Shown one piece after another: positions 25,287 to 42,539 of a stretch of 42,711 nt of DNA (its first letter is position 1; each line of letters opens with the position of its first letter). The position numbers were made by a program, and so were the translations under genes. The stretch is from Fimbriimonadales bacterium. GTDB taxonomy: Bacteria > Armatimonadota > Fimbriimonadia > Fimbriimonadales > JABRVX01. The stretch lies in NCBI GenBank assembly GCA_045862955.1, contig BTVI01000027.1:1-42711 (forward strand), read 5' to 3'. The notes under the pieces are model-generated. The model did not search any database, was not told the origin of the DNA, and saw only the letters and a list, made by a program, of their open reading frames with translations.

Positions 25287-25315
25287 TTGACATGTAGACG
25301 CATGTCTGGTATAAT
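25287..25315 (+). promoter_or_regulatory. Consensus sigma70 promoter with overlapping inverted repeat GACATG-N6-CATGTC
   Basis: TTGACA 25287-25292, 17-bp spacer, TATAAT 25310-25315; inverted repeat at 25289-25306. Confidence 0.85.
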
Positions 25316-25408
25316 AGGTCCCAGCGTTGCTCGAAGAAGGGTTTCTAGCGGTACCCCCTTGGGCGACGGACGCTGCATCGAGTGAAAACCGGGCCGGCCC
25401 GGAGATTG

Positions 25409-25452
25409 GGAGGCCCTCGCCGAGGACGTCTCGGCGGGGGCTCCTTTTCTTT
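25409..25452 (+). terminator. Intrinsic terminator in the leader of the phage-like operon
   Basis: Stem GCCCTCGCCGAG / CTCGGCGGGGGC (one G-U) with GACGT loop, followed by TCC then TTTTCTTT. Confidence 0.75.
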
Positions 25453-25514
25453 GGAAGGGCTGGCCGGGTCGGACCCGTCCGAGCAGCTGGCAGCAACAAA
25501 GAACGGAGGCTGGA

Positions 25515-26498
25515 GTGCGCGAAGTAATCAAACAAGCGAAGCTCTTCGAGGCGGGGGACTACCCCGACAAGGGGCTGAGCGTCTCCGAGGAGGACCTCGA
25601 CGTGATGGCCCGTACCTCGGGCGAGGTGCCGCTGACCGTGGGCCATCTGGACCCGGATTCCGAGAATCCGCTGCGGCTGGGCACCGTGAGCAACCTGCAG
25701 CGGAAGGGCCGCGAGCTGTTCGGGGTGATTCGGTTCGCCCCGGAGGCCTGGGCGCTGCTGTTGCGATCCGGAGCGAAGTACCTTTCGGTGTGCCTCGACC
25801 GGCTGCGCAAGCGGCTGCTGGAGGTGTCACTGGTGGTGAGGCCGCGAGTGCGGGATGCACGCGTGCGATTCTCCGAGGGCGATGTCCCGGTTCGGATCGA
25901 CGTGCCGTTCGACTCGACTCTGGACGATAGGACGGGGGCCGTTCGGGCGGCGATCTACGATGCTTTCGGCCCGGAGGTATGGGTGCCCGAGGTGTACGAG
26001 GACCATGCCATCGTGGAGCGTGGGGCCGAGCTGCTTAAGGTGCCCTATCGCTTCACGCGGGACGGCGCGGTACGGCTGGGGCGCGGGAAGCGGGTCGAGC
26101 GGCGGTACGTGCCTTTGAGCGCAGAGGACGTGCGCTCACGCAGGCCAGCCGAGGGTTCGCTCTCGCAGGCCAGGCTGCGCTCCGAGGCGGAAGAGCGGAT
26201 CGAGCAGTGGCGGCGAGGGGGGCGTATCACGCCTGCTACCGAGGAGTACGCACGGAGGTTGCTGCTACACGCCCCGCCGGAGACCCGGCGCATGTTCATG
26301 GACTTCGTCGAGGCTCAGCCGGAGAGCATTCTGTTCACCCAGGTCACGCCATTCGCCATGAGCGAGGAGGAGCCGCTGCCGGAGCTGGAGCCGGCCGAGG
26401 CGGCGCTGTGCGAGCGCTTCGGAATCGGGCTGGACGAGTATCGGCGCATCAAACACAGCGCCCAGGGGAACCACCGATACACAGGAAGGAGGGCATAG
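25515..26498 (+). CDS. Mu-like prohead protease/scaffold (gpI-like)
   Basis: F.AG.Y, EEDLD, PL.VGH, G.V..L...G..L, KYLSV, C-terminal GRITPA; upstream of decoration and capsid genes; GGAGG RBS. Confidence 0.75.
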   Translation: MREVIKQAKLFEAGDYPDKGLSVSEEDLDVMARTSGEVPLTVGHLDPDSENPLRLGTVSNLQRKGRELFGVIRFAPEAWALLLRSGAKYLSVCLDRLRKRLLEVSLVVRPRVRDARVRFSEGDVPVRIDVPFDSTLDDRTGAVRAAIYDAFGPEVWVPEVYEDHAIVERGAELLKVPYRFTRDGAVRLGRGKRVERRYVPLSAEDVRSRRPAEGSLSQARLRSEAEERIEQWRRGGRITPATEEYARRLLLHAPPETRRMFMDFVEAQPESILFTQVTPFAMSEEEPLPELEPAEAALCERFGIGLDEYRRIKHSAQGNHRYTGRRA

Positions 26499-26499
26499 G

Positions 26500-26934
26500 T
26501 TGGCGGCACTCACATCCGAGCGAAACCACCCCATCAAGGACGGTCTCATTGTCAGTCTGAAGATGGCAGCTGTGAAGATCTTCAAGGGTGCTATGGTAGG
26601 CATGACGGCGGAGAGCGTGGCAGGAGTGCCTGACACCGGCTACGTCACCAATCTCGCGACGGGCACGACGAACCCGATGCTCTTCATGGGGGTCGCGGAG
26701 GAGACCGTGGACAACAGCGCCGGACAAGCAGGGGCGAAGGCTATCCGCGTGCGACGGTCCGGCAGGTTCGTGTTTTCGCGATCGGGAGCCTCTCAGGCAG
26801 ATGTCGGGCGGGAGTTCTACGCATCCGATAACCAGACACTCACTACTACCTCCACCAAGAACGCGAAGGTCGGCAAGTGCGTCGGCTACGTGGACGCCGC
26901 GCGCCTCGAGGTGGACATCTCCAATTACACCTAG
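26500..26934 (+). CDS. Capsid decoration/cement protein, Mu-like phage type
   Basis: MAALTSERN, KIFKGAMVG, GVAEETVDNS.G.AG, DVG...YASD.QT pattern; typical position between protease and capsid genes. Confidence 0.7.
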   Translation: MAALTSERNHPIKDGLIVSLKMAAVKIFKGAMVGMTAESVAGVPDTGYVTNLATGTTNPMLFMGVAEETVDNSAGQAGAKAIRVRRSGRFVFSRSGASQADVGREFYASDNQTLTTTSTKNAKVGKCVGYVDAARLEVDISNYT

Positions 26935-26988
26935 GCCGAACACCACGCACGGTAGACCTCAGGATCACACTCATAAAGGGGGATCATC

Positions 26989-27954
26989 ATGCCTGTCACC
27001 GACAGTGACATTCAAGGCTTCATTGCGCCGGTATTGCGCAACGACTTCTTCGAGGCATACTTCCAGGCGTTAGAGGGCGACGTCCAGCGAGCCATTGACC
27101 TGCTCGCCACCACCGTACCCATCTCCGGAAACATTGCGCGCTTCCCTTTCGTCGGGGACGTTCCGGAGATGACGCGCTGGACCGACGAACGGGCCTACGA
27201 TGCCTTCAACACTTACAATTACACCGTGACGCTGGGCGATCCGTGGGAGGAGACTGTCGCCATCAAGCGCACTGCTCTACGGGACGACATGACGGGTCAA
27301 CTCCGGCAGCGAGCGCGGGACTTGGGTGCTTTGCCTATCAGTGCACGGCTCAAGCAACTGATAGCTGCCCTAGAGGCCGGAGTTAGCACACCTTGCTACG
27401 ACGGGAAGAGCTTCTTTGCATCCGACCATCCGGTGCGCAATCTGTCTGGAGCAGCGGACACTGCAGCGAATGTCGGCAGCGCCGATCTAGGGACGGATGC
27501 GATCGAGGCGGTGATCGAAGCGATGCGTTCGTTCACTTCCGACCAAGGGAAGCCGCTGGCGGTCACGCCTTCTCACCTGCTGGTAGGTCCGAAGCTGGAG
27601 TGGCGCGCTCGCAAGCTGCTGGAATCTCCTATCGTGGTAGTGAACGTCGGCGAGGGAACTGTGGGAACCGGCGCGACGGCTGCAACGCCCTACAAGAACG
27701 TTCTGCAAGGACAGCTCGAGTTGATCGTGTCGCCCTGGATCGACAACTATCACTGGTACGTGTTGGACCTGACCAAGTCCGCGAAGCCGCTGGTGTTAGT
27801 GACCGAGTCGGGGGAGCCGGTGGAGTTTCAGTACCTAGAGCAGGGTAGCGAGCATGCCTTCAAGCGGGACGAGTTCGTGTTCGGGGTGCGTGACCGCTTC
27901 GAGGTGGGATACGGGTTGTGGCAGCTCGCCTACTACCAGGCGGGAACGGGCTAG
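26989..27954 (+). CDS. Mu-like prophage major head subunit gpT
   Basis: GDVPEM..W..ER, E.TVAIKR...DD..G, CYDGKSFFASDHP, P..LLVGP.LE..AR, WYVLD..K..KP, FVFGV..R..VGYG.WQLAY. Confidence 0.92.
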   Translation: MPVTDSDIQGFIAPVLRNDFFEAYFQALEGDVQRAIDLLATTVPISGNIARFPFVGDVPEMTRWTDERAYDAFNTYNYTVTLGDPWEETVAIKRTALRDDMTGQLRQRARDLGALPISARLKQLIAALEAGVSTPCYDGKSFFASDHPVRNLSGAADTAANVGSADLGTDAIEAVIEAMRSFTSDQGKPLAVTPSHLLVGPKLEWRARKLLESPIVVVNVGEGTVGTGATAATPYKNVLQGQLELIVSPWIDNYHWYVLDLTKSAKPLVLVTESGEPVEFQYLEQGSEHAFKRDEFVFGVRDRFEVGYGLWQLAYYQAGTG

Positions 27955-27955
27955 C

Positions 27956-28231
27956 ATGCAGTTGGACTGGCAGGTAGGGTTGCAGTGGCTTGCGCTGTTA
28001 GGTTTGGGTGGCGTGCTGGGGGCGTTAGTCGCGCTGGCCTCGGCCACTGCTCGCCTGCGCGCACACTGGAACACCCTTCGGGAGGCACTCACCCCTTACT
28101 TGGAGTGGCGACGAGAGGAAGGCGACGAGACGGCCCGGCTGCTGCTGGAGGCCGTCGGCTCCGTGGAGACGGACATGCAGGCCGCGTCGAAGGCTCTGCG
28201 CGACCTGCAGGAGCGCCTGCGCAAGCGATGA
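27956..28231 (+). CDS. Small membrane protein with C-terminal coiled coil (possible lysis component)
   Basis: N-terminal TM helix, helical charged tail; abuts the capsid stop. Confidence 0.55.
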   Translation: MQLDWQVGLQWLALLGLGGVLGALVALASATARLRAHWNTLREALTPYLEWRREEGDETARLLLEAVGSVETDMQAASKALRDLQERLRKR

Positions 28232-28683
28232 GCATCACGCTGCCGTTGGAGGCGATTGCAGCAGCGCTCGAGGAGATGGTCGCCGCGGCGTGGCCCGAGG
28301 TGGTGTCGCCCATTCTGTACGAGACGGAACCGATGCGCATCCTATTGGACCGACAGTCTTCTCCGCAGGTAGCCGTGGTGTGGGGAAAGGTCTCGAGCGA
28401 GCCGGACTGGGGGCCGACGGTCGGCGCGTTCGACCTCGAGGTGGACGTGTTCTACTTTCAGCGCGCCGAGGCACCCGCTGCGATGGAAGCTGCCATGCGG
28501 ACGAAGGCCGCTGCCCTTCTGAACCGCGCGCTGGATGCGGGAAATCGCTGGAGCGGTGTCGCTGGCATGCACGGCTGGAGGCTCCGGGACGCCGAGGCGC
28601 CGCAGGCATCGAGGGCGTGGCGGGCCACCGGTTGGGTGGTGGCGCACATCCCTTTGGAGGTGAGGTTCGACTATGAACGGTAG
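28228..28683 (+). CDS. Putative tail terminator/neck protein (gp37-like)
   Basis: 151 aa with N-terminal helix, beta-strands, central helix and terminal strand; ATGA coupling; function inferred from size and position only. Confidence 0.45.
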   Translation: MSITLPLEAIAAALEEMVAAAWPEVVSPILYETEPMRILLDRQSSPQVAVVWGKVSSEPDWGPTVGAFDLEVDVFYFQRAEAPAAMEAAMRTKAAALLNRALDAGNRWSGVAGMHGWRLRDAEAPQASRAWRATGWVVAHIPLEVRFDYER

Positions 28684-28918
28684 CGTGGCAACGGAGTCGG
28701 GCGTGACGCTGTCCTGGCTGCAGCTAATGCTCGGCGTGGTGAGCCTGCTGGGCACCGTGCTTTGGTCTTGGCATTCGATTGCCTCACGGCTGGAGGTGAC
28801 TACGGCGGTACAGAGCGAGCAGCTCGGGCGACTGTTTCGCACTGCGGAAGAGCAGCAGCGTCTGCTTGCGGACGTGCGAGAGCGGGTGGCTCGGATCGAG
28901 GAAAGGGGGCGAAAGTGA
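28673..28918 (+). CDS. Small membrane/coiled-coil protein (holin-associated type)
   Basis: One TM helix, then a coiled coil ending RVARIEERGRK; overlaps neighbours. Confidence 0.55.
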   Translation: MNGSVATESGVTLSWLQLMLGVVSLLGTVLWSWHSIASRLEVTTAVQSEQLGRLFRTAEEQQRLLADVRERVARIEERGRK

Positions 28919-29094
28919 CCTACGATTTGTTCAAGTTTCGCTGGACGATCTTAGGCGCAATGATGGTCGGCCTGGGGGCCGGGCTGGCCGGATCGGAGTT
29001 CCACCCGATCCTGCGCGCTCTGGGAGCGATGCTGTCTTCGGGCGGTGCGGCCATCGGTGGGTTCTTTCTAGACCGGAAGGCGGCTGGTTCGTGA
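28915..29094 (+). CDS. Putative holin (59 aa, two TM helices)
   Basis: GTGA overlaps at both ends, two hydrophobic segments, charged C-terminus, amidase nearby. Confidence 0.5.
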   Translation: MTYDLFKFRWTILGAMMVGLGAGLAGSEFHPILRALGAMLSSGGAAIGGFFLDRKAAGS

Positions 29095-29528
29095 GCTACT
29101 TCAGCGACGCCGACCTGACGGAGCGACTTCGGGGCACCGGGATCGTGCCCGTCTCGGCCGAGGTCAACGCCGCGAGGGCGTTTGCCGAGGGCTATGTGGA
29201 CGCCGCTCTGACGAGCCGCTATCACGTGCCGTTCGACCCGGTGCCCGAGGTGGTTCGGTTCGTGGCGCTGGACATCGCCGCGTACGAGGTGCTCTCGAAG
29301 CACTTCACAACCGAGGACCCCAACGTCGGCGACCTAGTGCGGCAGTTCTGGAAGAGGGCACAAGACACGTTGGCGGCCCTGGCCGAGGGACGGTTGCGGT
29401 TGGGGGACGACGCCCGCGTGGACCAGACGGCGGAGCAGCAGCCGCTCGCGAGCCGCACGACCGAGGACAGCGTGTTTCGCCTGCCCGACGAGCGGTCGGC
29501 AGAGCCGGGCACGATGGAGGACTGGTGA
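29091..29528 (+). CDS. Mu gp36-like (DUF1320) head-tail adaptor
   Basis: SY....DL..R, A..YVDAAL..RY.VPF..VP, DIAAY.V, A...L..LA.G...LG. Confidence 0.85.
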   Translation: MSYFSDADLTERLRGTGIVPVSAEVNAARAFAEGYVDAALTSRYHVPFDPVPEVVRFVALDIAAYEVLSKHFTTEDPNVGDLVRQFWKRAQDTLAALAEGRLRLGDDARVDQTAEQQPLASRTTEDSVFRLPDERSAEPGTMEDW

Positions 29529-30007
29529 CAGGGCGGTACATGGAGCGCCGGTCGCCTAATCAAGGGAGCCGGCGCGGTGCCACCGTGGACACCATCGTGC
29601 TACACGCGACCGGCGGAACGAGTTTCGTAGGTGCGGTTCGGTGGTTGTGCGACCCGGCGAGTCGCGTGTCGGCGCACTTCGTGATCGGCAAGAAGGGCGA
29701 GCTGGCCAAGCTGGTGCCGCTCTCTCGCGCCGCCTATCACGCGGGAAGGTCGCGGCTGCCGGACGGTAGCGGCGGCGTCAATCGCCGTTCCATCGGCATC
29801 GAGCTGGTGAACCGCAACGATGGTGACGACCCCTACCCGCTTGCCCAGCTATCGCGTCTAGAGACGCTGCTGGCGGAGCTGATGCGCGCCTTTCCCATTC
29901 GGTGGTTGGTGTCGCACGCCAGCATCGCACTGCCCGCGGGCCGAAAGACCGACCCGAGGGGGCTGGACGTGCAGGCGCTGGCTCGTGAGCTCGGATTGGA
30001 TGGTTAG
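29525..30007 (+). CDS. N-acetylmuramoyl-L-alanine amidase (Amidase_2), putative endolysin
   Basis: SPN, IVLHAT, VSAHFVI, AYHAG, SIGIELVN, H..IA...RKTDP. Confidence 0.93.
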   Translation: MTGRYMERRSPNQGSRRGATVDTIVLHATGGTSFVGAVRWLCDPASRVSAHFVIGKKGELAKLVPLSRAAYHAGRSRLPDGSGGVNRRSIGIELVNRNDGDDPYPLAQLSRLETLLAELMRAFPIRWLVSHASIALPAGRKTDPRGLDVQALARELGLDG

Positions 30008-30018
30008 GAGGTGCATGC

Positions 30019-30438
30019 ATGGCACAACGCCTGATCGCACAAGACGCGATCATCACCATAGCGCCGGCGGGTGCGGACGACGGCACTTTCAGCCCTGGTA
30101 GCGCGGTCACGTTGAGGTTTCGAAGTGCCAACTTCCTGTTCCGAAGCGACCTCGTGGACGTAACAGCGGCGGGAGACCCCTACCGAATGCTGCGTATCGC
30201 GAGGCGCGACTTCGTGGTGGAGTGCGAGGGGTTAGTACACACGACGAACGGCAACTATCCGGACTTGACAGCCCTCGCCTTCGACAACGCACTCGCACGA
30301 CTTACATGCACTCTCATCGGATCGGGTAGGTCCGTGGTCGTGGACGGCATCATCGAAAGGCTGAACCTGAACGTGGCCGAGCCCGATACGGAGAGTCTTA
30401 CGCTGCGGCCGTATGGCATCGCCCCGATCCTCACATGA
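30019..30438 (+). CDS. Putative tail tube protein (non-contractile type)
   Basis: 139-aa beta-rich protein with F....VDVT...D..R pattern; strong AGGAGG RBS; precedes a frameshifting chaperone gene; no sheath gene present. Confidence 0.6.
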   Translation: MAQRLIAQDAIITIAPAGADDGTFSPGSAVTLRFRSANFLFRSDLVDVTAAGDPYRMLRIARRDFVVECEGLVHTTNGNYPDLTALAFDNALARLTCTLIGSGRSVVVDGIIERLNLNVAEPDTESLTLRPYGIAPILT

Positions 30439-30797
30439 CACCGGAGCGCAAGAGGGAGATTGATGGCTCTCGATTCGGTTACCCGCAACGCATACGCCTG
30501 AGACGTATCGAGGACCTGGCAACGTTGATACGTGTGGCGTGCGACCAGCGCGAGGCCAAGCCGCTTGCCGTGCATTTCTCGAAGGTGTTCGGTTTCGGTG
30601 TGACCGAGGCGGTGGTGCAGGCGTCGGCCGTGCTCAGTGCATGCTGGGACGCCGAACCGCCGAAGCGCCTGGAGGATCTGATTGCTATGTCGCGCGAGCA
30701 CGGATCGTTGATGCTGGAAATGCTCCGTGTGTGCAACGAACTGAACGGGTGGAGCGACGACCCTTTTGGGAGTGCCGCTGGTGGCGGCGGCTGCTAG
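30435..30797 (+). CDS. Putative tail assembly chaperone (G); -1 frameshift extends it to 30904 (GT)
   Basis: Follows the tail tube gene; in-frame C CCT TTT heptamer at 30761-30767 near the 3' end; open -1 frame to the stop at 30904. Confidence 0.65.
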   Translation: MTPERKREIDGSRFGYPQRIRLRRIEDLATLIRVACDQREAKPLAVHFSKVFGFGVTEAVVQASAVLSACWDAEPPKRLEDLIAMSREHGSLMLEMLRVCNELNGWSDDPFGSAAGGGGC

Positions 30798-30912
30798 GTG
30801 CATCTTTGGGTGTGCTCGGACGACATCCCATCGAGCTCTGCCATCTACCTCGGTGGGTACTCGAGGAGGTTGCAGAGTGGAGGAGTCACTTAGGCGAGAA
30901 GTAGCCTCTTCC

Positions 30913-31248
30913 TTGAGATGGGCTGAAAAGGTACTAGGATGGATTCGGGCGTGTCTGACGCCAGCGCTGTCAGTGGGTGGAGTGTCGCAACGCCTGCTAG
31001 CAAGCAATCCTCAGTCGAGTACCGATGCTGGCGGCGGAAAGGTTTCGCCGCAACGAGCGGAGGAGTCTGCGCGCACTGGCACGCCAGTGCACTCGCAAGA
31101 GGCTGTTTCGGATGATCTGCTTCGACGGCTTCAGGGGGTGGCCCGACTGCTGGAGGAAGTGGTGATGCGCGCAGCGCGCGTAGGCGAGCCGGTGTTAGCA
31201 GACGATCCGTGGCGGGATTCGCGCATCGCGTTGAGCGAGGAGCTGTAG
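30913..31248 (+). other. Short open frame at the tape-measure position (remnant or miniature protein)
   Basis: Open frame without a good ATG/RBS whose stop abuts the next ATG; about 110 codons only; start uncertain. Confidence 0.35.
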
Positions 31249-33465
31249 ATGTCCATCGAGCTGCTGCTGAACACGACGGAGAGGGAGTTGCGCGATCCCG
31301 GCTGGGGGAAGACCTTGTCTGCGTTGCAGATCGTGCATCGAGAACCCTTGGACGAGGGCCTGTGGCGGGAGCCTATAACCGGTGCTGTCATGTTACGCCC
31401 CTCGCCGCTGCTACCCGAGTGGAAGGAGGGTGATACCTACGAAGGAGACAAGCTGACAGTCGAGGACTTCCACCGGCGCGAGATGTTCTGGGAGACGGTG
31501 TACACCCGCGGCGGACTGGAGGACCCGTTCCTGTCCCTGGGGTATCCGGCCGGATCGATGCCCGGCGATGTGGAGTTGGACACCGGGCTCGGCATGGGGG
31601 GACTGGTCGAAGGCTACGGTGCGGGGCTCGTGTGGGCCTTGCACTCTAAGGAGAACCTGACGCTGAACCAGGGCGTATACCTCGAGGCGCGGCACCTAGG
31701 ATACACCTACGATCGTGCGGCAGACTACCTAGCTCTCGTGTTCGGGCAGTATGCGCTCAAGCTGCGCACAGACGGCACCGCACTGCTGCTACGCTACATG
31801 CAGCGCGAGAACGAATGGTCTCGGCTTCATGCGATGAGGTTCGCTGGTCCTTCGGAGCAACATGGGGAAGGGCTCTCGGTGTTAGTGCTCCCGGTGCTTG
31901 GGAACCGACTACATTTTTACTTCTCCAGCCTGCGGGCCGTGGATGCTAGCACCGATTCGGAACGACTGCCTGCGCCGCGGAGCAGCTACCACGCGTATCG
32001 CTTGCCACGCTCGGAAGAGCAGTGGGATTCGGTAACACGCGTGTGGCGAGTGGTGGACGAAGGGCCGATTCGGGTCGCAGTGTCTCCTGGGCGTCGCTAC
32101 TTCCTTCAGATCGGCAAGGTGCGATTCGCGGCCGGGCAGCGCTCGGTGTATCTAGGACACGACGATCTGGGTGCACCGCTTGCGAAGCCACCTAAGATCA
32201 CGTTGCACGGGTACTTGCCGGGAGATGCGGAGATGGAGGGTCTGGTCCTGGACGCCGACACGGGTGGCGTGTTTAGCGTGGGTGATAGCACCAAACCCCA
32301 ACCTCGCGTTCTGCTGTCGGGTGCGGTGTCGGGGCCGTGGTCGCCGGAGCTTCACGCGGTCACCGTGCAGTTCGCGCCACGGATCGCATCGGTACCGCGA
32401 GAGACGCTCGACGTGAGCAGCGACGTGATGACAGTGCGGCTGCGCCTCAGCGACGATATGCAGCCGCAAACACTGCTAGCGACGCTCCGCGACTGGGCTG
32501 CTCTGCCGTTGCACGCGGGCATTCCATGCCGAGTGTCACTGGGTGGTACGTCGCTGTTTCGCGGCAACGTGGACTCTGTGACGAGCCGAGCCGGGGTGCC
32601 AGGGCAGACGGTCACATTGCGGGCGCGAGACGGATGGTCGCGGCTCGAGAGCGTTCAGGCCGTACCTTCGCCGGCATTCGACGGCTGGGTTCATACGGAA
32701 GTAGTGCGCTACCTGCTAGGGCGCGCGGGTGTGGCGGACGACGAGATGGATATCGCGGAAGGCGACGCGAGCTTGCCGGGCGGTGGCCAGACCGACGAGG
32801 AGCCGGATGCTATCCCGCTGAGCCCGTCGGTGAACGACTGGCGCTTCTGCCCGAAGCCCGGAGACACGGTGGCGGATATGCTTCGACTGATTGGCACGCA
32901 GTTCAGCGGTTGGACGCTGCGCCACGACGCAGGAGTGTGGCGTTACCGGCCACGACCACAAGGACAGGAGCCGGACCTGTGGGTGTTCGCCCGGACCGCA
33001 GACTACGTGGAGTCCAGCGAGCCCGACGAGCACAAGCTGCGAGCGCTAACACTACACCGCGTGGTAGTCCCACCCGAGTTCAACGTTCTGTACGTGTACG
33101 GCGCGGACGGATCGCGCGATGCGCATAGGGTGATGACCTATGAGCGCAACCTCGCATCCATTCAGCTGCCAGGCTCGGAGGACTACCTAGGGCGCGCCGT
33201 CGAGGCCCACCACACGGTGTCGTGGGCTACTACGGCGGAGGCGTGCGCGCGAGTCTCGCGTCTGCTGATGAACGAGAAGGGCCGGTCGCGCCACCTGTGT
33301 ACGTTCACATGTGAGTGGCGAGCCGCGGTGCTACCGGGCGCAGTGGCGTCGGTAGTAGGTGTCAACGGTGAGGCGTTAGGTGAGTACCGGCTGACGGATG
33401 TGCAGATCGAAACGGGGGGTCGACGGGGTCAGCGTTTGCTCGCACGCTGTACCGGCACGGCATGA
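31249..33465 (+). CDS. Putative tail hub/baseplate protein
   Basis: 738 aa; C-terminal half has LFRG.VD.V....TVTLRARDG..RL and FN.LYVYG patterns, as in tail hub proteins; position in the tail module. Confidence 0.55.
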   Translation: MSIELLLNTTERELRDPGWGKTLSALQIVHREPLDEGLWREPITGAVMLRPSPLLPEWKEGDTYEGDKLTVEDFHRREMFWETVYTRGGLEDPFLSLGYPAGSMPGDVELDTGLGMGGLVEGYGAGLVWALHSKENLTLNQGVYLEARHLGYTYDRAADYLALVFGQYALKLRTDGTALLLRYMQRENEWSRLHAMRFAGPSEQHGEGLSVLVLPVLGNRLHFYFSSLRAVDASTDSERLPAPRSSYHAYRLPRSEEQWDSVTRVWRVVDEGPIRVAVSPGRRYFLQIGKVRFAAGQRSVYLGHDDLGAPLAKPPKITLHGYLPGDAEMEGLVLDADTGGVFSVGDSTKPQPRVLLSGAVSGPWSPELHAVTVQFAPRIASVPRETLDVSSDVMTVRLRLSDDMQPQTLLATLRDWAALPLHAGIPCRVSLGGTSLFRGNVDSVTSRAGVPGQTVTLRARDGWSRLESVQAVPSPAFDGWVHTEVVRYLLGRAGVADDEMDIAEGDASLPGGGQTDEEPDAIPLSPSVNDWRFCPKPGDTVADMLRLIGTQFSGWTLRHDAGVWRYRPRPQGQEPDLWVFARTADYVESSEPDEHKLRALTLHRVVVPPEFNVLYVYGADGSRDAHRVMTYERNLASIQLPGSEDYLGRAVEAHHTVSWATTAEACARVSRLLMNEKGRSRHLCTFTCEWRAAVLPGAVASVVGVNGEALGEYRLTDVQIETGGRRGQRLLARCTGTA

Positions 33466-33538
33466 GGCGGGGCAGCGCGTTGCGTACGTGTTTCTGCCGG
33501 TCTCGTGATTCGGCCTTGCTCGACCTCACGCCAATACG

Positions 33539-33643
33539 GTCATGCTGAGCTTGTCGAAGCATGCGGTCGGTAGCCGCGAAGGTGGCGGTGGATAACGTTA
33601 GCGTGCGGCGCGCGAGGTCATGCTTCGACAGGCTCAGCATGAC
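33539..33643. repeat. Inverted REP pair of the same family as 34-174, inside the phage-like cluster
   Basis: GTCATGCTGAGCTTGTCGAAGCATG at 33539-33563 and GTCATGCTTCGACAGGCTCAGCATGAC at 33617-33643. Confidence 0.9.
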
Positions 33644-33713
33644 GAGTGAGGGCTAGTCGCGGAATCGCGCGTAGGCATTCGGGCCGAGGCGGTGGCAGGA
33701 AGGAGGTCGTGCG

Positions 33714-33941
33714 ATGGATTGGGAGCGGGAGCGATTGAGGGAGGCACTATCAGGTCTTATGAGGCAGGAGTATGTGCGGTCCGGGGACCGGGCATTCACG
33801 AGTGGGAACCTGACCACACAGCGGCTAGATGTCGCACGGCTTCCGCTAGGCGAGTCGCGATCGCTTACAGCCTCCGACGGCTCGCCGTTCCTGATCGTGG
33901 GCCTCAGCCACATCGGCGACGGGTCGGTGGTAGGCCGCTAG
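33714..33941 (+). CDS. Small hypothetical tail-module protein (75 aa)
   Basis: GGAAGGAGG RBS; stop 1 nt before the next ATG. Confidence 0.65.
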   Translation: MDWERERLREALSGLMRQEYVRSGDRAFTSGNLTTQRLDVARLPLGESRSLTASDGSPFLIVGLSHIGDGSVVGR

Positions 33942-33942
33942 C

Positions 33943-36867
33943 ATGGTAGACCTGTTCCGCACGGGGCGGACGCGAAGGCTGACACTCGCGTGGGCGTTTA
34001 GCGTCGAGGCGGCCTATCGTGCCCTGCAGCCCGTGGGCGAGGGATACACCGGCGGCTCCGGCATCGCTGTGCGGTGGCTCGGCTTCGAGGTGTGGGCAGG
34101 CAGCCCGGGCGATGTGTGTGGCCGCAGCGACACGGGCGCACCGCCGAATGGGTTTCTGCTACCGATCGCTGGTGGCCCGGATGGCCTGTCTTGGGTGTTA
34201 CAGATCAGGCTGCCGGGCGACCCCGCCACGGGCTTCGGAGGGTACTTCAATGCCTATGGCCCCTGGGGCCACGTTGGCGACGAGATGCCCGTGGCCGCTT
34301 ATAAGCCGCTAGGGATGCCCACCGTTCCACCCGGGCAAAGGTATGGCGTCGTCGGCTCCGTCGCGCTATGGATGGACGTGGAAGAGTGGAAGGGTATCGA
34401 GATCGACGCACGAACCCCTCGGGTGCCACTTTCGTATCCCACGAGCGGACAGGGTCCCGGCGACGACGATTTCGTAGGTATGTGCACCATGCATTACTAC
34501 GAAGGGCCGAAGGCGGGCGGGCAGTATGGGTTCGCGATTACGCTCGAGGAGGGGTTCGGGGCATCTGCATCGGCTGACATACCTGCCGACATCGTCGGCC
34601 CCGACGTGCTAGCACACACCCCGACGGCGAGGCTGTTCCACTCCCCATCGAATGAAGAGGGCTTCGCAGGAAGTATCGGCACCATGCGTCTCAACGAGCT
34701 ACCGATCAACTTCGATCGCGTAGCCTGCGAGCAGCCATACTACACGTGCGTGGGTGCGGAGGACGGTACGCTGTGGGGAGAGACTGCTGCACACCCCTCC
34801 GGCCCCTACCTTGCGACGTGCGAGTGCGCGCCCGACACCGAATTGCAGGTGCATGGTGTCACCACGAAGGTCTTCGAGCCGAACTACGGTGCGGCCGTTC
34901 GCTATCGCCGCTCGTGGGCGGAGCCGCCGGAGGTCGTGAAGGCTAACGGGGTCTACGCCGGAGAGCCCGAGTCGTACACGGAGCAGCGCGCTGCCGTGGA
35001 GCGGTGCGTGGGTGGAGAGCCGGTCCCGCTATGCGACGTACTGCTAGCGAGGCCCGACCTCTTCCTTTGGCTAGACAACGAGTGGATGACGCAGAACGGC
35101 GAAATACCTCAGGACTGGCGAATCCTGATCGCAGACGACTTCTCGTGGACGCCCTTCGAGCTGGCTCACACAACTTCGCGCACGGTGGATGCGTTCGACT
35201 CGGCTGAGGGCTGGGTGGGTGAGAATGCCACGGTTACCGCATCGGGTGGCATCCTGCGCCTCGTCGTGGCTGGCGGCGAGGGCAGTGTGCGCAAGAACCT
35301 CACGCGCGACGCATCGCAGTATAGGAAGCTGAGGCTCACTGCGCGCTCCAATCCGGCCGGACCCTGCACGGTCCGGCTGAACGACTCGAACCTATACGTG
35401 TGGGAACTCGACCTGACCACGGGGTTCAGGGAGTACGTGCTCGATCTGTGCGTGCCCCAGGGGGCGAGTGCCGACTACGACCTGACGGACAGCTCTTACG
35501 TACCTCCGGGAGAGTACTACGGCCCGAGGCACATCGAGAGCGTCGGCCTGGAGCGACTGTCGGATGGCGCCACCTACAGCTTCGCCGATCTGTCTCTTGT
35601 TAGAACGCGGGAGGCTGCAGTCACGGCCCTGCCGCCCTTCGACGAGAGCGTGATAGGTGACGACGGGGTGAGGCGATATCGCCTGTGCTGGGGATTGTGC
35701 GACGGTAGGCAGATTCTGGACATGCCGTATCGTGTCGAGGACACTCGCGGGGATCGGTTCCTCAGCGTGCGCGAGCTGATCGAGGAGCTAACATCGCACG
35801 ATGCATGCGACGTCAGAGTGCCGGCGCCGCCCGGCAGTGACGAGCGCACGCGGTACTACTACGATCACGACTCTCGCTTGGCGGCCTTCATGGCGTCCGA
35901 GTGGTACTCCGGAGGCACCAAACTCGACCTGCTAGACGTGAGCCTCGTGGGCAGAACTCCCATCCGCTGGCTACAACGATACGACATGGTGGGTATCTAT
36001 CCAGGGATCGGTGACCCTGCCGGCTCGCACGGCGGTCCCTACCCTCTGCGCTTCACCAAACGGTTGCGAGCGATGTGTCATGGACTAACCGTGGACATCA
36101 CGGAGCAGCGCTCGGCAGAAGGCGTGCCCGTCACACTCTATCGGAACGGTTCGGGCTACGCGAGCGCGGTCAGTGGAGAGGAAGGCTACTACCGCGTGGG
36201 CCCGTTCGCCCCTATTGACGGAGCGTGGTCTATCGGGACATCGGAGAGCGGGCCGATCCCTCTTCCGTCCGGGCTAACCGACAGGAAGTACCGCTGGGTG
36301 GGGCTCGCCGGCGAGCCACACCCTCTAGCAGGCAGGACGAGCATGACGCGTAACGAGACAGGAAGGCTGTTCGTTGCGTACACGGCGAACGACGGGCTGA
36401 GGCTGAGACGTTTCGAGACCGACGGACGGAGCGAGGACTTCATGCTGGAGGCCGGGTTCGCGGGCAGCGGCTTCGCGATAGCGTGGTCCCCGCCGGGACG
36501 TTTGCACGCGGTGCTGGAGATCGGCGGGAATGTGTTGCATCGGGTCGCCCTCGATGACGGTGAGACATGGGAGGAAGACGGGATGGTTTTCGCTTCGGCA
36601 GGTCATCCGAACTTAGCGGCGGACCCTGTAACGGGGTTCCTGTATGCTTTCAGTCACGATGGCAACGGAATACGTTGCAGCCGCTCCATAGACGGCGGTG
36701 CCACCTGGACCGATCCGGTGATCGTGGTTGCTCAGTGCCCTCAGCAGACGTGTGGTGTGACTATCAGGCCGGATGGTGCTAACACTCTCTTCGTGAGTTG
36801 GCTAGCCGAGGATGGGACGGTACGTCTCAGCCGCAGCCTGGACAACGGGGTTACGTGGCAAGAGTAG
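33943..36867 (+). CDS. Large tail-associated protein with C-terminal Asp-box (BNR) beta-propeller
   Basis: 974 aa; LDDGETWE, SIDGGATWT, SLDNGVTWQ; central jelly-roll/CBM-like segment (FDSAEGW...YRKLRL). Confidence 0.6.
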   Translation: MVDLFRTGRTRRLTLAWAFSVEAAYRALQPVGEGYTGGSGIAVRWLGFEVWAGSPGDVCGRSDTGAPPNGFLLPIAGGPDGLSWVLQIRLPGDPATGFGGYFNAYGPWGHVGDEMPVAAYKPLGMPTVPPGQRYGVVGSVALWMDVEEWKGIEIDARTPRVPLSYPTSGQGPGDDDFVGMCTMHYYEGPKAGGQYGFAITLEEGFGASASADIPADIVGPDVLAHTPTARLFHSPSNEEGFAGSIGTMRLNELPINFDRVACEQPYYTCVGAEDGTLWGETAAHPSGPYLATCECAPDTELQVHGVTTKVFEPNYGAAVRYRRSWAEPPEVVKANGVYAGEPESYTEQRAAVERCVGGEPVPLCDVLLARPDLFLWLDNEWMTQNGEIPQDWRILIADDFSWTPFELAHTTSRTVDAFDSAEGWVGENATVTASGGILRLVVAGGEGSVRKNLTRDASQYRKLRLTARSNPAGPCTVRLNDSNLYVWELDLTTGFREYVLDLCVPQGASADYDLTDSSYVPPGEYYGPRHIESVGLERLSDGATYSFADLSLVRTREAAVTALPPFDESVIGDDGVRRYRLCWGLCDGRQILDMPYRVEDTRGDRFLSVRELIEELTSHDACDVRVPAPPGSDERTRYYYDHDSRLAAFMASEWYSGGTKLDLLDVSLVGRTPIRWLQRYDMVGIYPGIGDPAGSHGGPYPLRFTKRLRAMCHGLTVDITEQRSAEGVPVTLYRNGSGYASAVSGEEGYYRVGPFAPIDGAWSIGTSESGPIPLPSGLTDRKYRWVGLAGEPHPLAGRTSMTRNETGRLFVAYTANDGLRLRRFETDGRSEDFMLEAGFAGSGFAIAWSPPGRLHAVLEIGGNVLHRVALDDGETWEEDGMVFASAGHPNLAADPVTGFLYAFSHDGNGIRCSRSIDGGATWTDPVIVVAQCPQQTCGVTIRPDGANTLFVSWLAEDGTVRLSRSLDNGVTWQE

Positions 36868-36876
36868 GAGGAGAAG

Positions 36877-38067
36877 ATGGGTTACTTCCGACTAGTGGAC
36901 GGGGCGGTGCTCTCGGCGAGTCAGCAGAACCGTAACTGGAGCGACTTCGAGACGTTGTCGCGCCTATCGCAGGGGCATGTGGTATTGAGCGGCCTCACGC
37001 TATCGGCGGGCCAGGGACTATCCGTGACCGTGGCAGAGGGGGCGGCCTCGCTCGATAAGTTGGTGGAAGTCGCGGAAACCGAGATCGTCGGCTTGCCACC
37101 CTCGAGCACCACATACGTCTGGCTGCGCGAGGACGGAACATTCACGCTGACACCGACCCTTACCCCGCCCATGGGGACTCACACCTTGCTCGGTTCCGCG
37201 ACGACGGGTACCGATAGCGTCATCGGAGTGGATACTTCCATCGCATGGCGCGGGCAGCGCGTGGAAGACTCTGTCCGACAGGTGACGGGGCCGAACGCAC
37301 TGACCGTGATGCTGAACGCTGTTAAGGTGGGAATCGGCACCGATAGCCCGTCGGAGGCTTTGCACGTGTCCGGGGCTGCGCGTGCGGACGCACTTAGCCT
37401 CCCGGAGCGCACAGCCCCGCCCACTGGAATTGCCAATCGTGGCTTCTTGTTCACGTTGGACGTCGGTGGACGGACCGAGCTGTTCTACCGCGACGATGGG
37501 GGCAACGACACGCAGATCACTTCGGAAGGCGGGCTTGCTCCGGGTGGTTTTCTGCTGCTCTCCGGCGGCACCATGGCGGGTGACATCGCGATGGGTGGGC
37601 ACCGGGTGACCGGCCTGGCTGCGGGGCAAGCCTCCTCGGACGCGGTGCGGCTGTCGCAGCTCCTTGCGCACAGCATTCGCACCTTTGCAGTACACACGGG
37701 TTCGTGGGCGCAGCTTCAGAACACCACGCGGTTCTTGCCGCTCGTTGGCTACCGCGGGCCGTCCACCGGGAACGAGGCATATGCGCAGGTTCGTCTGTAC
37801 GACCAGTCGCACACGCTGCGCAACCTCAGGGTCTTCGTCAGCGCCAACAGCACGCTGGCCGATTCGACGGTAACGCTGCGGGCGGACGGGAGCGACACGG
37901 GCCTCTCCGTCGCGATTCCCGCGGGGCAGACGGGGGAGTTCGAGAACACCAGTGGGAGTGCGGAGCTCTCGGCGGGCTCCCGGGCGTGCTACAAGGTGTT
38001 CGCGGGCGCAGGCGGCACCGGAATGATCACGGTGGAGACGATCCAGGTGGACTCGCTGAGCGCGTAG
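36877..38067 (+). CDS. Putative tail fibre / receptor-binding protein
   Basis: VLSGL.LSAG.GLSVTVA.G, VGIGT.SP...LHV.G and LSGGTM.GDI.MGG..VTGL......DAV motifs typical of fibre shafts; AGGAG RBS; last gene of the cluster. Confidence 0.7.
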   Translation: MGYFRLVDGAVLSASQQNRNWSDFETLSRLSQGHVVLSGLTLSAGQGLSVTVAEGAASLDKLVEVAETEIVGLPPSSTTYVWLREDGTFTLTPTLTPPMGTHTLLGSATTGTDSVIGVDTSIAWRGQRVEDSVRQVTGPNALTVMLNAVKVGIGTDSPSEALHVSGAARADALSLPERTAPPTGIANRGFLFTLDVGGRTELFYRDDGGNDTQITSEGGLAPGGFLLLSGGTMAGDIAMGGHRVTGLAAGQASSDAVRLSQLLAHSIRTFAVHTGSWAQLQNTTRFLPLVGYRGPSTGNEAYAQVRLYDQSHTLRNLRVFVSANSTLADSTVTLRADGSDTGLSVAIPAGQTGEFENTSGSAELSAGSRACYKVFAGAGGTGMITVETIQVDSLSA

Positions 38068-38499
38068 AGAACGGCGGAGCTCCGCCGCGGCGAGGCGCTC
38101 AGTCGGGAATGAAGCCGAAGGCTCGATGTCCTGCCTTCATGCCGTTGCTTCGGGACGACTCGTTCGCGGACCTCTGCGTGTTGCGAAACAGAGCCCGGGC
38201 CGGCGTATTGCTGCTGCTCCCGTCGCAGCGCCACCAGGGTATGGGTAGGTGCTATCACGCGGCGTTCGCAGAGGCGGCGCCGAGAACCGAAGAGGGTCGG
38301 CCACCCGCCGATCGCACGGGCCCGTCAGCGCAGCCTTCTCGCTGAGGCCTTGGTAAGGAAGAGGGGTGCCGACTCGCTCGCTCTTTTCGGTCTGGAAGCC
38401 CGCGCGAGCCCGCTGCCCTGTGACTTTTCACAGAGTGATCCGACAATCCTTATGACACATCAGGCGTTTGCGCCTGAGCTATGGAGGAAAGTGCGGTTC

Positions 38500-39138
38500 A
38501 TGGCTGTGAACAAACAGAACACGCCGAATACCGGCAACGTTGAGAACAAGAACGTAGGGACCTCGACGTACAGGCTCATCGGTGGGACGGCAACGGTCAC
38601 CAAGCCTGTGAAGAAGAGCGGCTCTACCAAGGCCAAGCGGACGACGAAGACGACGGCGCAGACCACCCGAACGGTCAAGCCGAAGGCCGTGACCAAGAGG
38701 ACCACCTCGGTCCGCCGGACCACGACGACGACCCAGAAGTTCGGCGCCTACACCGGCACTGCAACCGCTCCGCAGTTCCTGCCGTTCTTCAACATCAAGT
38801 TCGAGAAGCTGACCAACGGCATCAAGTGGCAGCTCATCAGCAACACGCCGGACGCCGTGAAGAGCCTGCAGAACTACTTCCAGATCTACTCGGGCAGCAT
38901 GGTTAGCCTGAACATCCTGCAGAACGGCATCCCGTGGTTCAGCTTCAACTTCGCCTTCGGTAACTGCACCTGGAAGCCGGCCGCCAACGGCGTCTGGTAC
39001 CTCTGCAACACCACCGACAAGGACTACATCAAGGCGTTGCACATGTTCGTAGACCTTGCGAACTACAGCATGAAGTGGGGCTCGACCTGCTGCCTCTCCA
39101 TTGGCGGCAACCCCCTTTGCTGCTGCTACTCGAAGTAG
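38500..39138 (+). CDS. Hypothetical protein with Lys/Thr/Arg-rich N-terminal tail and Cys-rich C-terminus
   Basis: GGAGG RBS, strong C/G third-position bias, downstream hairpin. Confidence 0.85.
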   Translation: MAVNKQNTPNTGNVENKNVGTSTYRLIGGTATVTKPVKKSGSTKAKRTTKTTAQTTRTVKPKAVTKRTTSVRRTTTTTQKFGAYTGTATAPQFLPFFNIKFEKLTNGIKWQLISNTPDAVKSLQNYFQIYSGSMVSLNILQNGIPWFSFNFAFGNCTWKPAANGVWYLCNTTDKDYIKALHMFVDLANYSMKWGSTCCLSIGGNPLCCCYSK

Positions 39139-39163
39139 TCCGGTAAGGCGACTTGTGATGCGA

Positions 39164-39189
39164 GGGGCCCGACCGAATGGTCGGGCCCC
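39164..39189. terminator. Hairpin between convergent genes
   Basis: GGGGCCCGACC-GAAT-GGTCGGGCCCC perfect 11-bp stem; weak U tract. Confidence 0.6.
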
Positions 39190-39212
39190 GGTTCGTTGAC
39201 TTGAGGGCCGAC

Positions 39213-39443
39213 TCAGTTCATCGAGAGGTATTCTTCGGCTTCGGCGCGTTGGCGTTCCATCTCAGCCTCCGGGTCCACGATTGCGGGCGGGTGGTGCGGG
39301 GGGCGCATCGTGCCGAAGAAGGGCGACATCCATCCCCAGGCCGTGCGCGGCAGCGCGATCTCGCCGGGAGGTTCCGGCATAGGCAGTTCGTCGTCCTCTA
39401 GGTAATCAGCGTCGTCGAATCGAGCTTCATCTTCCCCATACAT
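39213..39443 (-). CDS. Small acidic, Pro-rich hypothetical protein (76 aa)
   Basis: GGAGGT RBS before the ATG at 39443; non-random acidic composition. Confidence 0.65.
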   Translation of the reverse strand: MYGEDEARFDDADYLEDDELPMPEPPGEIALPRTAWGWMSPFFGTMRPPHHPPAIVDPEAEMERQRAEAEEYLSMN

Positions 39444-39772
39444 GGGCCACCTCCGAGACGTTCGGAGAAACGTCGATCCCTGACGTGCAATGGCCGAGCC
39501 AGAGCGACCCGCGCCGGTACTGGGTGTCCGGACGCGGGTCCCGCTGCGTCCGCACACAGCGCATCCATTCCGTGAGTGCGCTACCATGGTACACACTCGC
39601 TTTCCCGGTTGCGGCCCCGCAGATCGGCGAGATTTCGGCCGCCTGCAGTCGCAACCGGCAGAATTGCTTGGCCGCTAAGCGAAACTTCGAAAGCGGGTCG
39701 TGAGGTACCAGGCTCGGGGGAAAGGCTCAGGCCTGCTCGACGGGAAGTCTGCGGGCCATCCTTGCGGAAGTG

Positions 39773-39801
39773 TTGACATTCGGTGAATCGTGTGTTAACA
39801 T
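39773..39801 (+). promoter_or_regulatory. Putative sigma70 promoter of the PEP-CTERM gene
   Basis: TTGACA 39773-39778, 17-bp spacer, extended TG-n-TAACAT at 39793-39801. Confidence 0.65.
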
Positions 39802-39916
39802 AGGCAAGTCGCGGGCCTGCGTGCCCGTGCCGAATGTTTCCGTGTTTTTCTTTGCTATTGTGCCGCTCCTTCCCGTGGATGCAAGCTAATCGCAATCACG
39901 CAAAGGAGATTGGACA

Positions 39917-40804
39917 ATGCTCACCAGAAGCTTGCTGCTGGCCGCGTTCGTTACGGGCGCGATTAGCGTGGCGTTCGCGGATCTCTCCGAGCAGGAGCCC
40001 AATGACACCTTCCCCGGCACTCACATCGGCACGCTGAACAACGGGGAGAACATCACCGGCTCGATGACCTCGAGCGACGACGACTTTCATTACTTCGACA
40101 CGGCAGCCAACGGCTATGCCGCGCTTCGGCGGTACGTGTTCGACGTGAATGTCGATCCCGGGAATGGTGATTCGTACCTGTACATCTACGATACGAGCCC
40201 CGAGGGCTGGATCCTCGGCAACAACGACGACGTGAACTATCCAGCGGACGCAACGAGCTGGGTCAGCTTCGACCTGTTCGACTCAGGGGGAACGAACACC
40301 TGGGGCTACTACATGTGGGGCTACAACTCGTTCAACTATTGGCTGAACGTCTCGTGGTATGACCTCACGCCGACCTTCGCTGGTACGTTCGGACCCGGAG
40401 CGCTGAACATCAACACTTTCGCTGCGGACTTCGACACCGAGCTGTCGTTCTTCGACGGCTCCGGCAACTTCATCGCCTCGAACGACGACTTCAGCGGCAC
40501 GAGGTCGAATTTGGACCTGGTGCTGTCTCCGGGGCTGTACTACCTTTGCCTCGGTGGCTACAACACCCGGGATCCCGGCGATGCGATCAGCGGTGGCGGG
40601 TCGTGGGACCGCTCGGGAGCCGGTGGTGGGATCGACACCCGCGGCGGCAACTACGGCCTGAACATAGGTGGGACGCTAATCAACGGCACCCTGGCACAGG
40701 GTGACCGCCACTGGTTCACGATCGAGGTCGTTCCGGAGCCCGGCACCTACGCCGCGATGGCGACCGGCCTTCTCGGGCTGCTCGCTCTTCGCCGACGCAA
40801 GTAG
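39917..40804 (+). CDS. PEP-CTERM sorting domain surface protein with PPC-like domains
   Basis: Signal peptide, EQEPNDT, two DS/DT.L...D......NDD repeats, VPEPGTYAAMATGLLGLLALRRRK tail; AAAGGAG RBS. Confidence 0.92.
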   Translation: MLTRSLLLAAFVTGAISVAFADLSEQEPNDTFPGTHIGTLNNGENITGSMTSSDDDFHYFDTAANGYAALRRYVFDVNVDPGNGDSYLYIYDTSPEGWILGNNDDVNYPADATSWVSFDLFDSGGTNTWGYYMWGYNSFNYWLNVSWYDLTPTFAGTFGPGALNINTFAADFDTELSFFDGSGNFIASNDDFSGTRSNLDLVLSPGLYYLCLGGYNTRDPGDAISGGGSWDRSGAGGGIDTRGGNYGLNIGGTLINGTLAQGDRHWFTIEVVPEPGTYAAMATGLLGLLALRRRK

Positions 40805-40828
40805 TCACGGACTCTGACATGCCTGTGT

Positions 40829-40862
40829 GAGGCGGGGCCGAACGGCCCCGCCTCCTCACTTT
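40829..40862 (+). terminator. Putative intrinsic terminator
   Basis: GAGGCGGGGCCG-AA-CGGCCCCGCCTC inverted repeat right after the PEP-CTERM gene; short T run. Confidence 0.6.
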
Positions 40863-40926
40863 GCAGCCGCCCCCCTCGTCTGCATCACCGCGCGGGGCGG
40901 CCTTTCGGTATCATTGCTCACTCGTA

Positions 40927-42261: not shown

Positions 42262-42415
42262 GCACCGTCACGTGCCATCTCGAAGTCCGCAAGGTCGAGA
42301 GTGACGAAGCAGGATCCGAGAGTCCGCCCACGACCGTGTCTCTGTCCCTCACCGCTCGCACTGGTGATGCATGGATGGACCCGCCACGCTCAGCCTGTCG
42401 CCATGCTGCGTCTAT

Positions 42416-42539
42416 CGTCATGCTGAGGTTGACGTCATGCTGAGCCTGTCGAAGCATGACGCCGGATGCCGCGACCGCAGTATCTGAAGGCGATGACGTG
42501 CTGCCTGCGTGTGCATGCTTCGACAAGCTCAGCATGACG
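42416..42539. repeat. Inverted REP pair plus partial copy downstream of miaB
   Basis: Partial CGTCATGCTGAG at 42416-42427, full unit at 42434-42460, inverted copy at 42514-42539. Confidence 0.9.

Follow-up and report, generated by a model that had tools for sequence, protein, structure and literature searches.

Very few gene transfer agent (GTA) lineages are known outside the Alphaproteobacteria according to the account of FpGTA of Faecalibacterium, which packages 8.4 to 8.9 kb of host DNA (PMC12946183). RcGTA is described as encoded at five loci (PMC5026251), and GTA-aided DNA repair has been described in Caulobacter (PMC9632790). Here, we describe a cluster of Mu-type head, tail, and lysis genes in a 42,711-nt contig from a Fimbriimonadales bacterium (phylum Armatimonadota; GenBank accession number BTVI01000027.1), the whole of which is referred to as the window. 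Together with packaging genes on a second contig, the cluster is fairly likely to represent a host-domesticated, multi-locus, DNA-damage-inducible GTA-like particle system. Neither a system of this kind nor an SOS box in Armatimonadota is described in the literature consulted (mostly non-subscription papers).

The source genome, G000 (3.36 Mb in 94 contigs; 97.55% complete), carries the window as contig C27. It was compared with the two other genomes of its family, f1 (G001 from the same genus and G002 from a sister genus), with an order set of 61 Fimbriimonadales genomes, 56 of them good, and with a phylum set of 221 Armatimonadota genomes. G036 was counted in the order set but omitted from trees, and no claim depends on it alone. 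All window genes between positions 25515 and 38067 are open and co-directional, with the content and order given in the initial annotation, which had also noted, correctly, that terminase, portal, gpF, transposase, integrase, and replication genes are absent from the window. One option raised there, a split system with its packaging genes at another locus, was borne out. A PF06074 search of G000 identified one portal, of Mu type, on contig C46, and the terminase, missed by a PF03237 family search, turned up beside it. The large terminase matched phrog_38 (E value, 3e−94) and contains the Walker A and B, motif III, and nuclease motifs. Its start is overlapped by a 115-amino-acid (aa) open reading frame (ORF), a candidate small terminase from its position. 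Upstream are a zinc-finger ORF of 80 aa and, divergently oriented, a gene for a helix-turn-helix S24 (CI/LexA-like) repressor that keeps the Ser/Lys dyad and the Ala-Gly site; host genes flank the block. The earlier statement that no repressor is present therefore stands for the window but not for the packaging locus. Since intact, conserved terminase and portal genes exist, a DNA-free particle, another option of that annotation, is disfavored; GTA function itself is what we infer.

In G001, ∼31 kb separates the packaging and head blocks, which share a contig and are surrounded by host genes. In G002, the terminase, portal, protease, and capsid genes form one contiguous run, with the orthologue of the C46 repressor alone on another contig. 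A set of 18 phage or prophage-like loci supplied 440 proteins as tblastn queries, of which 59 matched the G000 genome, and every structural match fell on C27 or C46; the transposase, MuA/MuB, gpF, primase, and tape-measure queries had no match in that genome. Family searches of G000 for gpF and tape measure also returned none while their positive controls matched; a PF09299 search returned nothing, but its positive control was silent too. From the FP_Mushu locus only the methylase, portal, and capsid had tblastn matches in G000. Neither the window ORFs nor a tblastn search with a Mu-type sheath as query revealed a sheath; a remote one elsewhere could escape this approach. Three tyrosine recombinase matches were identified in G000, none on C27 or C46. 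The proposed whole-genome search thus yielded the terminase and portal but no full tape measure. An assembly join, earlier named as a possible refutation, is ruled out, as independent contigs bridge both borders at flat depth: a 12,649-nt contig (run X9, independent study) covers dnaE to the hub gene and a further one covers 33635 to 42458, with depth flat at 289 to 316 except in two repeat bins.

The system was found to be phylum-wide and mostly without recognizable tail genes. Within the order, the capsid was identified in 47 of 61 genomes (44 of the 56 good ones), the portal in 50, and the adaptor in 44, almost all as single copies. Close orthologues of the f1 terminase occur only in G001 and G002; other families use a second, phrog_2-type terminase, present in 47/61 order genomes with three weak matches. 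At a threshold of E < 1e−80, with four rows of the query alignment coming from searched genomes, this terminase was found in 47/52 capsid-positive versus 1/19 capsid-negative genomes. Across the phylum, 68 of 221 genomes carry the capsid and presence or absence follows family (f18, 17/18; f25, 9/10; f32, 10/13; f9, 3/3; f8, 0/20; f28, 0/11). The capsid co-occurs with portal, terminase, and adaptor genes spread over one to four loci. The closed genome G020 has the system at four places (1.23, 1.41, 2.27, and 2.56 Mb), and with loci up to 1.3 Mb apart, self-transfer is implausible. Outside f1, loci comprise protease, decoration, capsid, small membrane proteins, adaptor, a closure-like gene, terminase, portal, and sometimes amidase, followed by host genes; most families thus have head and neck genes without recognizable tail genes. 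In five near-closed capsid-positive genomes, the tube profile matched 0/5 and PF10145, whose control matched, also 0/5; the tube profile is narrow and could miss remote tails. The adaptor and closure profiles of these families had no PDB match; the former gave a DUF3199 lead and the latter only faint PHROG matches.

Ratios of nonsynonymous to synonymous substitution (dN/dS) were calculated by the Nei-Gojobori method with our own script, using G000 and G001 as the main pair. The values for 15 of 16 cluster genes were 0.03 to 0.20, the terminase and portal were at 0.06, and host genes were at 0.04 to 0.05; synonymous divergence (dS) was 0.5 to 1.0 for system genes and 0.6 to 0.85 for host genes. 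Eleven further genome pairs gave dN/dS values mostly of 0.03 to 0.17, with two small-dS values of 0.35 to 0.40. In a capsid tree of 128 rows (duplicates, G036, P0005, and P0028 omitted), 13 family labels required 12 changes, the minimum (shuffled mean, 51.8), and f32 alone needs two; the portal tree required 11 changes for 12 family labels, also the minimum. As kin cluster by nature, this shows sorting and not co-evolution as such. The initial annotation had proposed a host-maintained element and had named dN/dS near 1 as grounds for rejecting it; single copies, family-sorted trees, and the low dN/dS values all agree with host maintenance. Of the capsid-versus-species congruence that it had suggested examining, sorting by family was seen, but deep congruence with RpoB was partial, and the deep branching of the system is congruent with RpoB only loosely.

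Constraining f1 with f2 and f5, as in RpoB, was not rejected (approximately unbiased test P values, 0.57 and 0.55). The f1 loci have a post-capsid membrane gene in common with f2 and f5, as well as the Mu-type portal, and prophage-like loci with the f1-type terminase carry other portals. With a phrog_2 terminase and another adaptor found phylum-wide, parsimony favors a later f1 gain of terminase, gp36, and tail, and we lean slightly towards such a gain over an independent domestication. Between G005 and G032 (L217 and L219), rpoB dS is 0.44 and that of system genes is 0.04 to 0.11, a sign of recombination between close relatives.

The consensus σ70 promoter noted previously before the protease was confirmed as a perfect TTGACA-17-TATAAT (25287 to 25315, plus strand), with the same hexamers in G001; the whole G000 genome has seven such perfect sites. 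Between the −35 and −10 sequences is an operator, TAGAC-N4-GTCTG (25295 to 25308, no strand assigned), likely an SOS (LexA-type) box. The C46 promoter has two copies of the palindrome TAGAC-N4-GTCTA, which is conserved in both G001 and G002. The operator is also kept in 5/8 f2 loci and two f18 loci, and the box was identified in 12/37 protease upstream regions. G000 contains 28 sites within one mismatch, 12 of them intergenic (43%, versus 19% for permuted half-sites and 16% for non-coding DNA). These sites precede uvrA, an IMS-family (Y-family) polymerase gene, a radical SAM gene, an HNH nuclease gene, two glyoxalase-family genes, and mraZ; one box site lies 240 nt before recA, and sites with two mismatches are located ahead of uvrB, of pcrA and, as judged by eye, of lexA. 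No box was found before recN, ruvA, or uvrC in G000. In G013, which lacks a C46-type repressor, exact box sites precede recA and uvrB. TAGAC-N4-GTCTA is therefore likely the LexA/SOS box of Fimbriimonadales, as predicted from sequence position. The C46 repressor was considered as the LexA of the cell and rejected, as a canonical LexA is encoded on C29.

Between promoter and protease, the 5′ leader contains an intrinsic-terminator-like hairpin (25409 to 25452, plus strand; 14-bp stem and U tract), a possible attenuator that is kept in G002 with changed sequence and had no Rfam match. The gene list of the initial annotation was right but had overlooked this terminator, the operator, and a 122-aa ORF. 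Separate pieces of split loci each have their own promoter, and in f2, f4, and f5 a GGTTGAC-type element, defined after inspecting the sequences, occurs at 27/34 split operon starts versus 11/323 other genes.

These observations suggest how the system could work. DNA damage would activate RecA, and LexA (possibly also the C46 CI-like repressor) would be cleaved, freeing the box that the two promoters share. Transcription would also have to pass the terminator in the leader, which would limit output to a few cells. Protease, capsid, and portal would build a prohead, which the terminase, without a phage genome to act on, would fill with chromosomal DNA. The particle would be closed by the adaptor and by a tail that is very short and carries the propeller protein at its tip, the amidase and membrane proteins would lyse the cell, and the particles would deliver DNA to kin as a repair template. 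For f1, the probable history is a later acquisition, in which an older head module received its terminase, adaptor, and tail from a tailed phage of Armatimonadota.

The split, host-maintained system is real. As in GTAs, a phage-derived capsid, portal, and terminase are chromosomal, without linked replication, integration, or excision genes in the 94 contigs of the 97.55% complete G000, and they are inherited vertically under purifying selection with partial deep congruence. Domestication is very probable and, given domestication, packaging of host DNA is likely; delivery of that DNA to kin is less sure. Several points weigh against the GTA-like reading. The tail-less versions have no evident way to inject DNA. 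A capsid match is missing from 14/61 order genomes, so the system is dispensable, and orthologues are in pieces in G012, G023, and G027. G002 has in-frame stops in the tube gene (L033:6512-6931) and the tape-measure remnant (7327-7756), a frameshift at a G run in its 974-aa gene (L033:12480-12500), and no amidase. The box is missing from 4/4 f4, most f5, and 3/8 f2 protease promoters, and exact box counts genome-wide exceeded the reversed control in only 1/5 genomes, for which reason only box position was used. Purifying selection also occurs in prophage genes. The capsid and portal trees share 23/38 and 24/37 splits with RpoB (Spearman patristic correlations, 0.30 and 0.33). Under a mixture model, f1 sits on a very long stem (1.62), whose attachment is left open among f2/f5, f4/f18, and rows from tailed prophage-like loci. 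Capsids of the latter kind (G109, G257, f11, and a second copy in G092) nest in the same clade, so several independent domestications are possible.

Of the alternatives, two are improbable to the same degree. A PBSX-like particle, SOS induced, would package host DNA without delivering it and would kill competitors or act as a decoy. The SOS-type box and the receptor-like propeller protein fit such a role, and PBSX itself is described as mitomycin induced, as packaging 13.4-kb host fragments, and as acting as a tailocin (PMC12946183); however, no sheath gene was found among the window ORFs or by tblastn, and most families lack visible tail genes, yet have kept head and motor under selection. 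Alternatively, upon DNA damage or infection the host may flood the cell with heads and terminase that mis-package or cut the DNA of an infecting phage, or that couple with its tails. Such interference would suit the head-only core of most families, subunits could mix with the related capsids that tailed prophage-like loci of this phylum encode, and f1 indicates that tails can be re-attached, but the system has no linked integrase, primase, or satellite genome and its full, self-consistent head, motor, adaptor, and lysis set exceeds what interference would need. Slightly less probable still is a shell that serves to export, dispose of, or store damaged DNA, or that forms a nanocompartment, and whose contents other cells do not take up; DNA-damage control and the lack of a visible tail in most families agree with it, but adaptor, closure-like, and lysis genes are retained, and the f1 tube, chaperone frameshift, and tip are under selection in two genomes. 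The least probable, and for head and motor a largely refuted one, is that these are slowly decaying ordinary prophage remnants, with f1 an independently grounded tailed phage without present function, for although the G002 tail lesions, the CI-like repressor divergent from an early-type promoter, the resemblance of the f1 terminase and tail to prophage-like loci, and the long f1 stem all point that way, dN/dS is 0.03 to 0.20 at dS up to 1, the genes are single copy with family-sorted trees, non-structural genes were cleanly lost, each split piece has its own promoter, and the G002 repressor orthologue sits alone on another contig.

All genes of the cluster are on the plus strand. The cluster starts with a Mu gpI-like head maturation protease/scaffold gene (25515 to 26498; dN/dS, 0.13), whose family assignment by hidden Markov model is weak (PF10123; E value, 2.6e−4); H44, S91, and S105 are invariant in 63/63 orthologues. 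The assignments of the capsid, decoration, gp36, and amidase genes by sequence are firm. A capsid decoration/cement protein (26500 to 26934; phrog_1731; E value, 1e−24; dN/dS, 0.04), with PF09956 found in an orthologue, is followed by the major capsid protein of the Mu gpT family (26989 to 27954; PF10124; E value, 3e−53; dN/dS, 0.04), for which the best deposited phage capsid is ∼30% identical. A single-helix membrane protein with a coiled coil (27956 to 28231), found at the same position in f2 and f5, may have a lysis role, and a 151-aa protein (28228 to 28683; dN/dS, 0.20), without match in family searches, is a candidate tail terminator or neck protein from position. Two small proteins could act in lysis: a membrane protein (28673 to 28918; weak phrog_214 match; E value, 0.03), holin/spanin-like by hydropathy, and a putative holin-like hydrophobic protein of 59 aa (28915 to 29094; dN/dS, 0.03) uncalled in G002. 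The Mu gp36 head-tail adaptor (29091 to 29528; PF07030; E value, 2e−16; phrog_195) and an Amidase_2 endolysin (29525 to 30007; PF01510; E value, 7e−31), which the G002 cluster lacks, complete this part.

The tail names of the initial annotation hold in part, the tube on a low-confidence model and the chaperone on a frameshift, whereas the hub and the 396-aa fiber had no family match. The probable tube protein (30019 to 30438), full length in 8/9 database rows and truncated in G002, was modeled with low confidence (predicted local distance difference test [pLDDT], 53), and its best match was PBSX XkdM (2guj; Z, 7.7 against a tool threshold of 8; root mean square deviation, 3.3; 111 aligned). 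Searches for the f1-type tube found none in IMG/VR and one 1.7-kb contig among metagenome contigs. Tail assembly chaperone G (30435 to 30797) is extended to 30904 as GT by a −1 frameshift. The slippery site CCCTTTT (30761 to 30767) and the extension (dN/dS, 0.20) are kept in 3/3 f1 genomes, and this supports the chaperone assignment, as a conserved −1 frameshift is a hallmark of tail assembly chaperones. The 122-aa ORF at the tape-measure position (30877 to 31248; dN/dS, 0.44), the least constrained cluster gene between G000 and G001, may be a vestigial tape measure; two prophage-like loci with the same hub carry 543- and 563-aa genes at this position, the 563-aa one with a tape-measure match. 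The f1 tail thus appears to be a stub with a tape-measure remnant.

Next is a putative 738-aa distal tail/hub protein (31249 to 33465; dN/dS, 0.11) with homologues in 14/221 phylum genomes and an Atlas lead to DUF5047/5048 at 0.85 to 0.87. A 75-aa protein (33714 to 33941; dN/dS, 0.09) separates it from the tip, and related prophages also have a small ORF there. The 974-aa multi-domain beta protein with a C-terminal BNR propeller (33943 to 36867; model pLDDT, 89) is a putative tail tip or receptor-binding protein, with sialidase-like matches to its propeller and a full-length match to the uncultured-phage protein A0A6J7WIV8 (E value, 1.6e−38; template modeling score, 0.52). Genes of this type are full length in 5/61 order genomes; 40 other matches are partial, mostly to the propeller alone. 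The last gene encodes a 396-aa putative fiber (36877 to 38067; dN/dS, 0.11) without family or PDB match, whose homologues follow hub genes in G145 and lie close to one in G236. Family searches were empty for the hub, the 151-aa "tail terminator," and the 396-aa "fiber," which are named from position and homologues in prophage-like loci. The G002 tail-gene lesions may represent tail decay or assembly error.

The GC content is host-like. A copy of a dispersed chromosomal repeat lies within the cluster (33470 to 33650, no strand assigned); the repeat, with the core TCATGCTGAGC (855 copies of the 11-mer), also occurs at 42430 to 42711 and at contig ends. RNA runs X17 and X19 gave short, low-depth contigs over the protease-to-tube genes and host genes alike, which is no proof of transcription. 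Downstream, a 215-aa Lys/Thr-rich, Cys-tailed ORF (38491 to 39138), for which RNA run X19 has a contig at depth 17, has a dS of 0.08 to G001 with neighbors at 0.5 to 1.0, which could reflect recent exchange or strong constraint. The linkage to dnaE reported earlier extends to G001, which has the same dnaE-to-miaB context, but the location differs in G002 and every other family; dnaE as a conserved site was rejected, as it holds only within the genus. miaB (40927 to 42261) is 2.9 kb after the cluster in G000 and G001 and directly before the protease in genus g8 (L040 and L043), which may be an ancestral link or chance.

Other head loci of the phylum deviate from this pattern. Two genomes of f32, G163 and G179, have two and three capsid-portal-terminase sets, respectively. 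Two genomes of genus g7, G028 (L294/L295; C2, ∼583 to 597 kb) and G049 (L291/L292, C1, 1.165 to 1.175 Mb; L313, 2.729 Mb), lack the Mu-type capsid. Each has instead a compact head cluster of HK97 type, which includes the same hub and a 954-aa tip module but no long tape measure, and in G049 its terminase is at a distant locus; this could be a second domesticated system. The f11 loci L145 and L146 have a Mu-type capsid, S49 protease, phrog_38-type terminase, another portal, and interposed host chemotaxis genes, and may be yet another domesticated variant. In G092:C68 (L232/L300), a tailed element that encodes gpF and a tape measure has a capsid on a long branch among f25 host-type capsids; here, a phage may have captured head genes of the host.

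More tentatively, a wider history can be proposed, in which an ancient, phylum-spanning Mu-head GTA was wired into the SOS regulon. Most families would have a tail-less particle of capsid, portal, adaptor, and closure with an unspecified delivery route, f1 would have re-armed the head with a phage tail and terminase, g7 would have swapped in an HK97-type equivalent with the same tip module, and whole virion modules would have moved between host and phage in either direction. The system is a separately derived GTA candidate on a Mu-type head, and its carriers span at least ten families of a phylum that is common in sludge and bioreactors. Since an inducer (DNA damage) and an operator can be predicted and closed carrier genomes exist, it can now be asked in another lineage whether GTAs are kept for DNA repair, and comparing the tailed forms of the system with the apparently tail-less ones offers a test of what a particle needs for DNA delivery. 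The probable SOS box of Fimbriimonadales emerged as a side result.

Among known particle systems, tailocins comprise a tail without head or packaging genes, whereas capsid, portal, and terminase are present here; capsid-forming phage-inducible chromosomal islands and other satellites differ in their integrase and primase/replication genes, which are not linked here, and encapsulins are stand-alone shells with cargo, whereas this system has a portal and terminase. VSH-1 of Brachyspira also has split loci and is induced by DNA-damaging agents, with apparently unrelated structural proteins. Mu-like phages (Mu, D3112/JBD26, and FP_Mushu) share the gp29 portal, gpI protease, gpT capsid, and gp36 adaptor, and the portal-protease-decoration-capsid order seen in G002, but capsid identity is ∼30%, the Armatimonadota terminases are of phrog_38 or phrog_2 type, and transposase A/B, Gam, GemA, gpF, and a full tape measure were not found in G000. 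The capsid and portal of RcGTA belong to other families than the Mu gpT (PF10124) and Mu gp29 (PF06074) proteins of Armatimonadota. PBSX of Bacillus subtilis is described as damage induced and as packaging random host DNA (PMC12946183), features predicted from genes for Armatimonadota; XkdM is the best match to the f1 tube fold and DUF3199 is the lead for the adaptor of other families. In contrast to PBSX, the Armatimonadota system has split loci, no recognizable sheath, and a tail that is vestigial or not found. FpGTA resembles it in having two operons, near-ubiquity within its clade, and capsids without visible tails (PMC12946183). By its description, on which this comparison is based, FpGTA is podovirus-like, with "Mu-like" unmentioned in the main text (PMC12946183), and its range is at the level of the genus, versus the phylum for the Armatimonadota system. 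The latter differs from RcGTA and CcGTA in its phylum, in the tail missing from most families, and in operons that appear to carry an SOS-type box directly, and the C46 repressor keeps the catalytic residues that RogA of CcGTA is described as lacking (PMC9632790). It shares with RcGTA and CcGTA a multi-locus, phage-derived head, motor, and short tail, the absence of replication genes, and vertical inheritance (PMC5026251), and its predicted control by a LexA/cI-like repressor and possible benefit in DNA repair resemble those described for CcGTA (PMC9632790).

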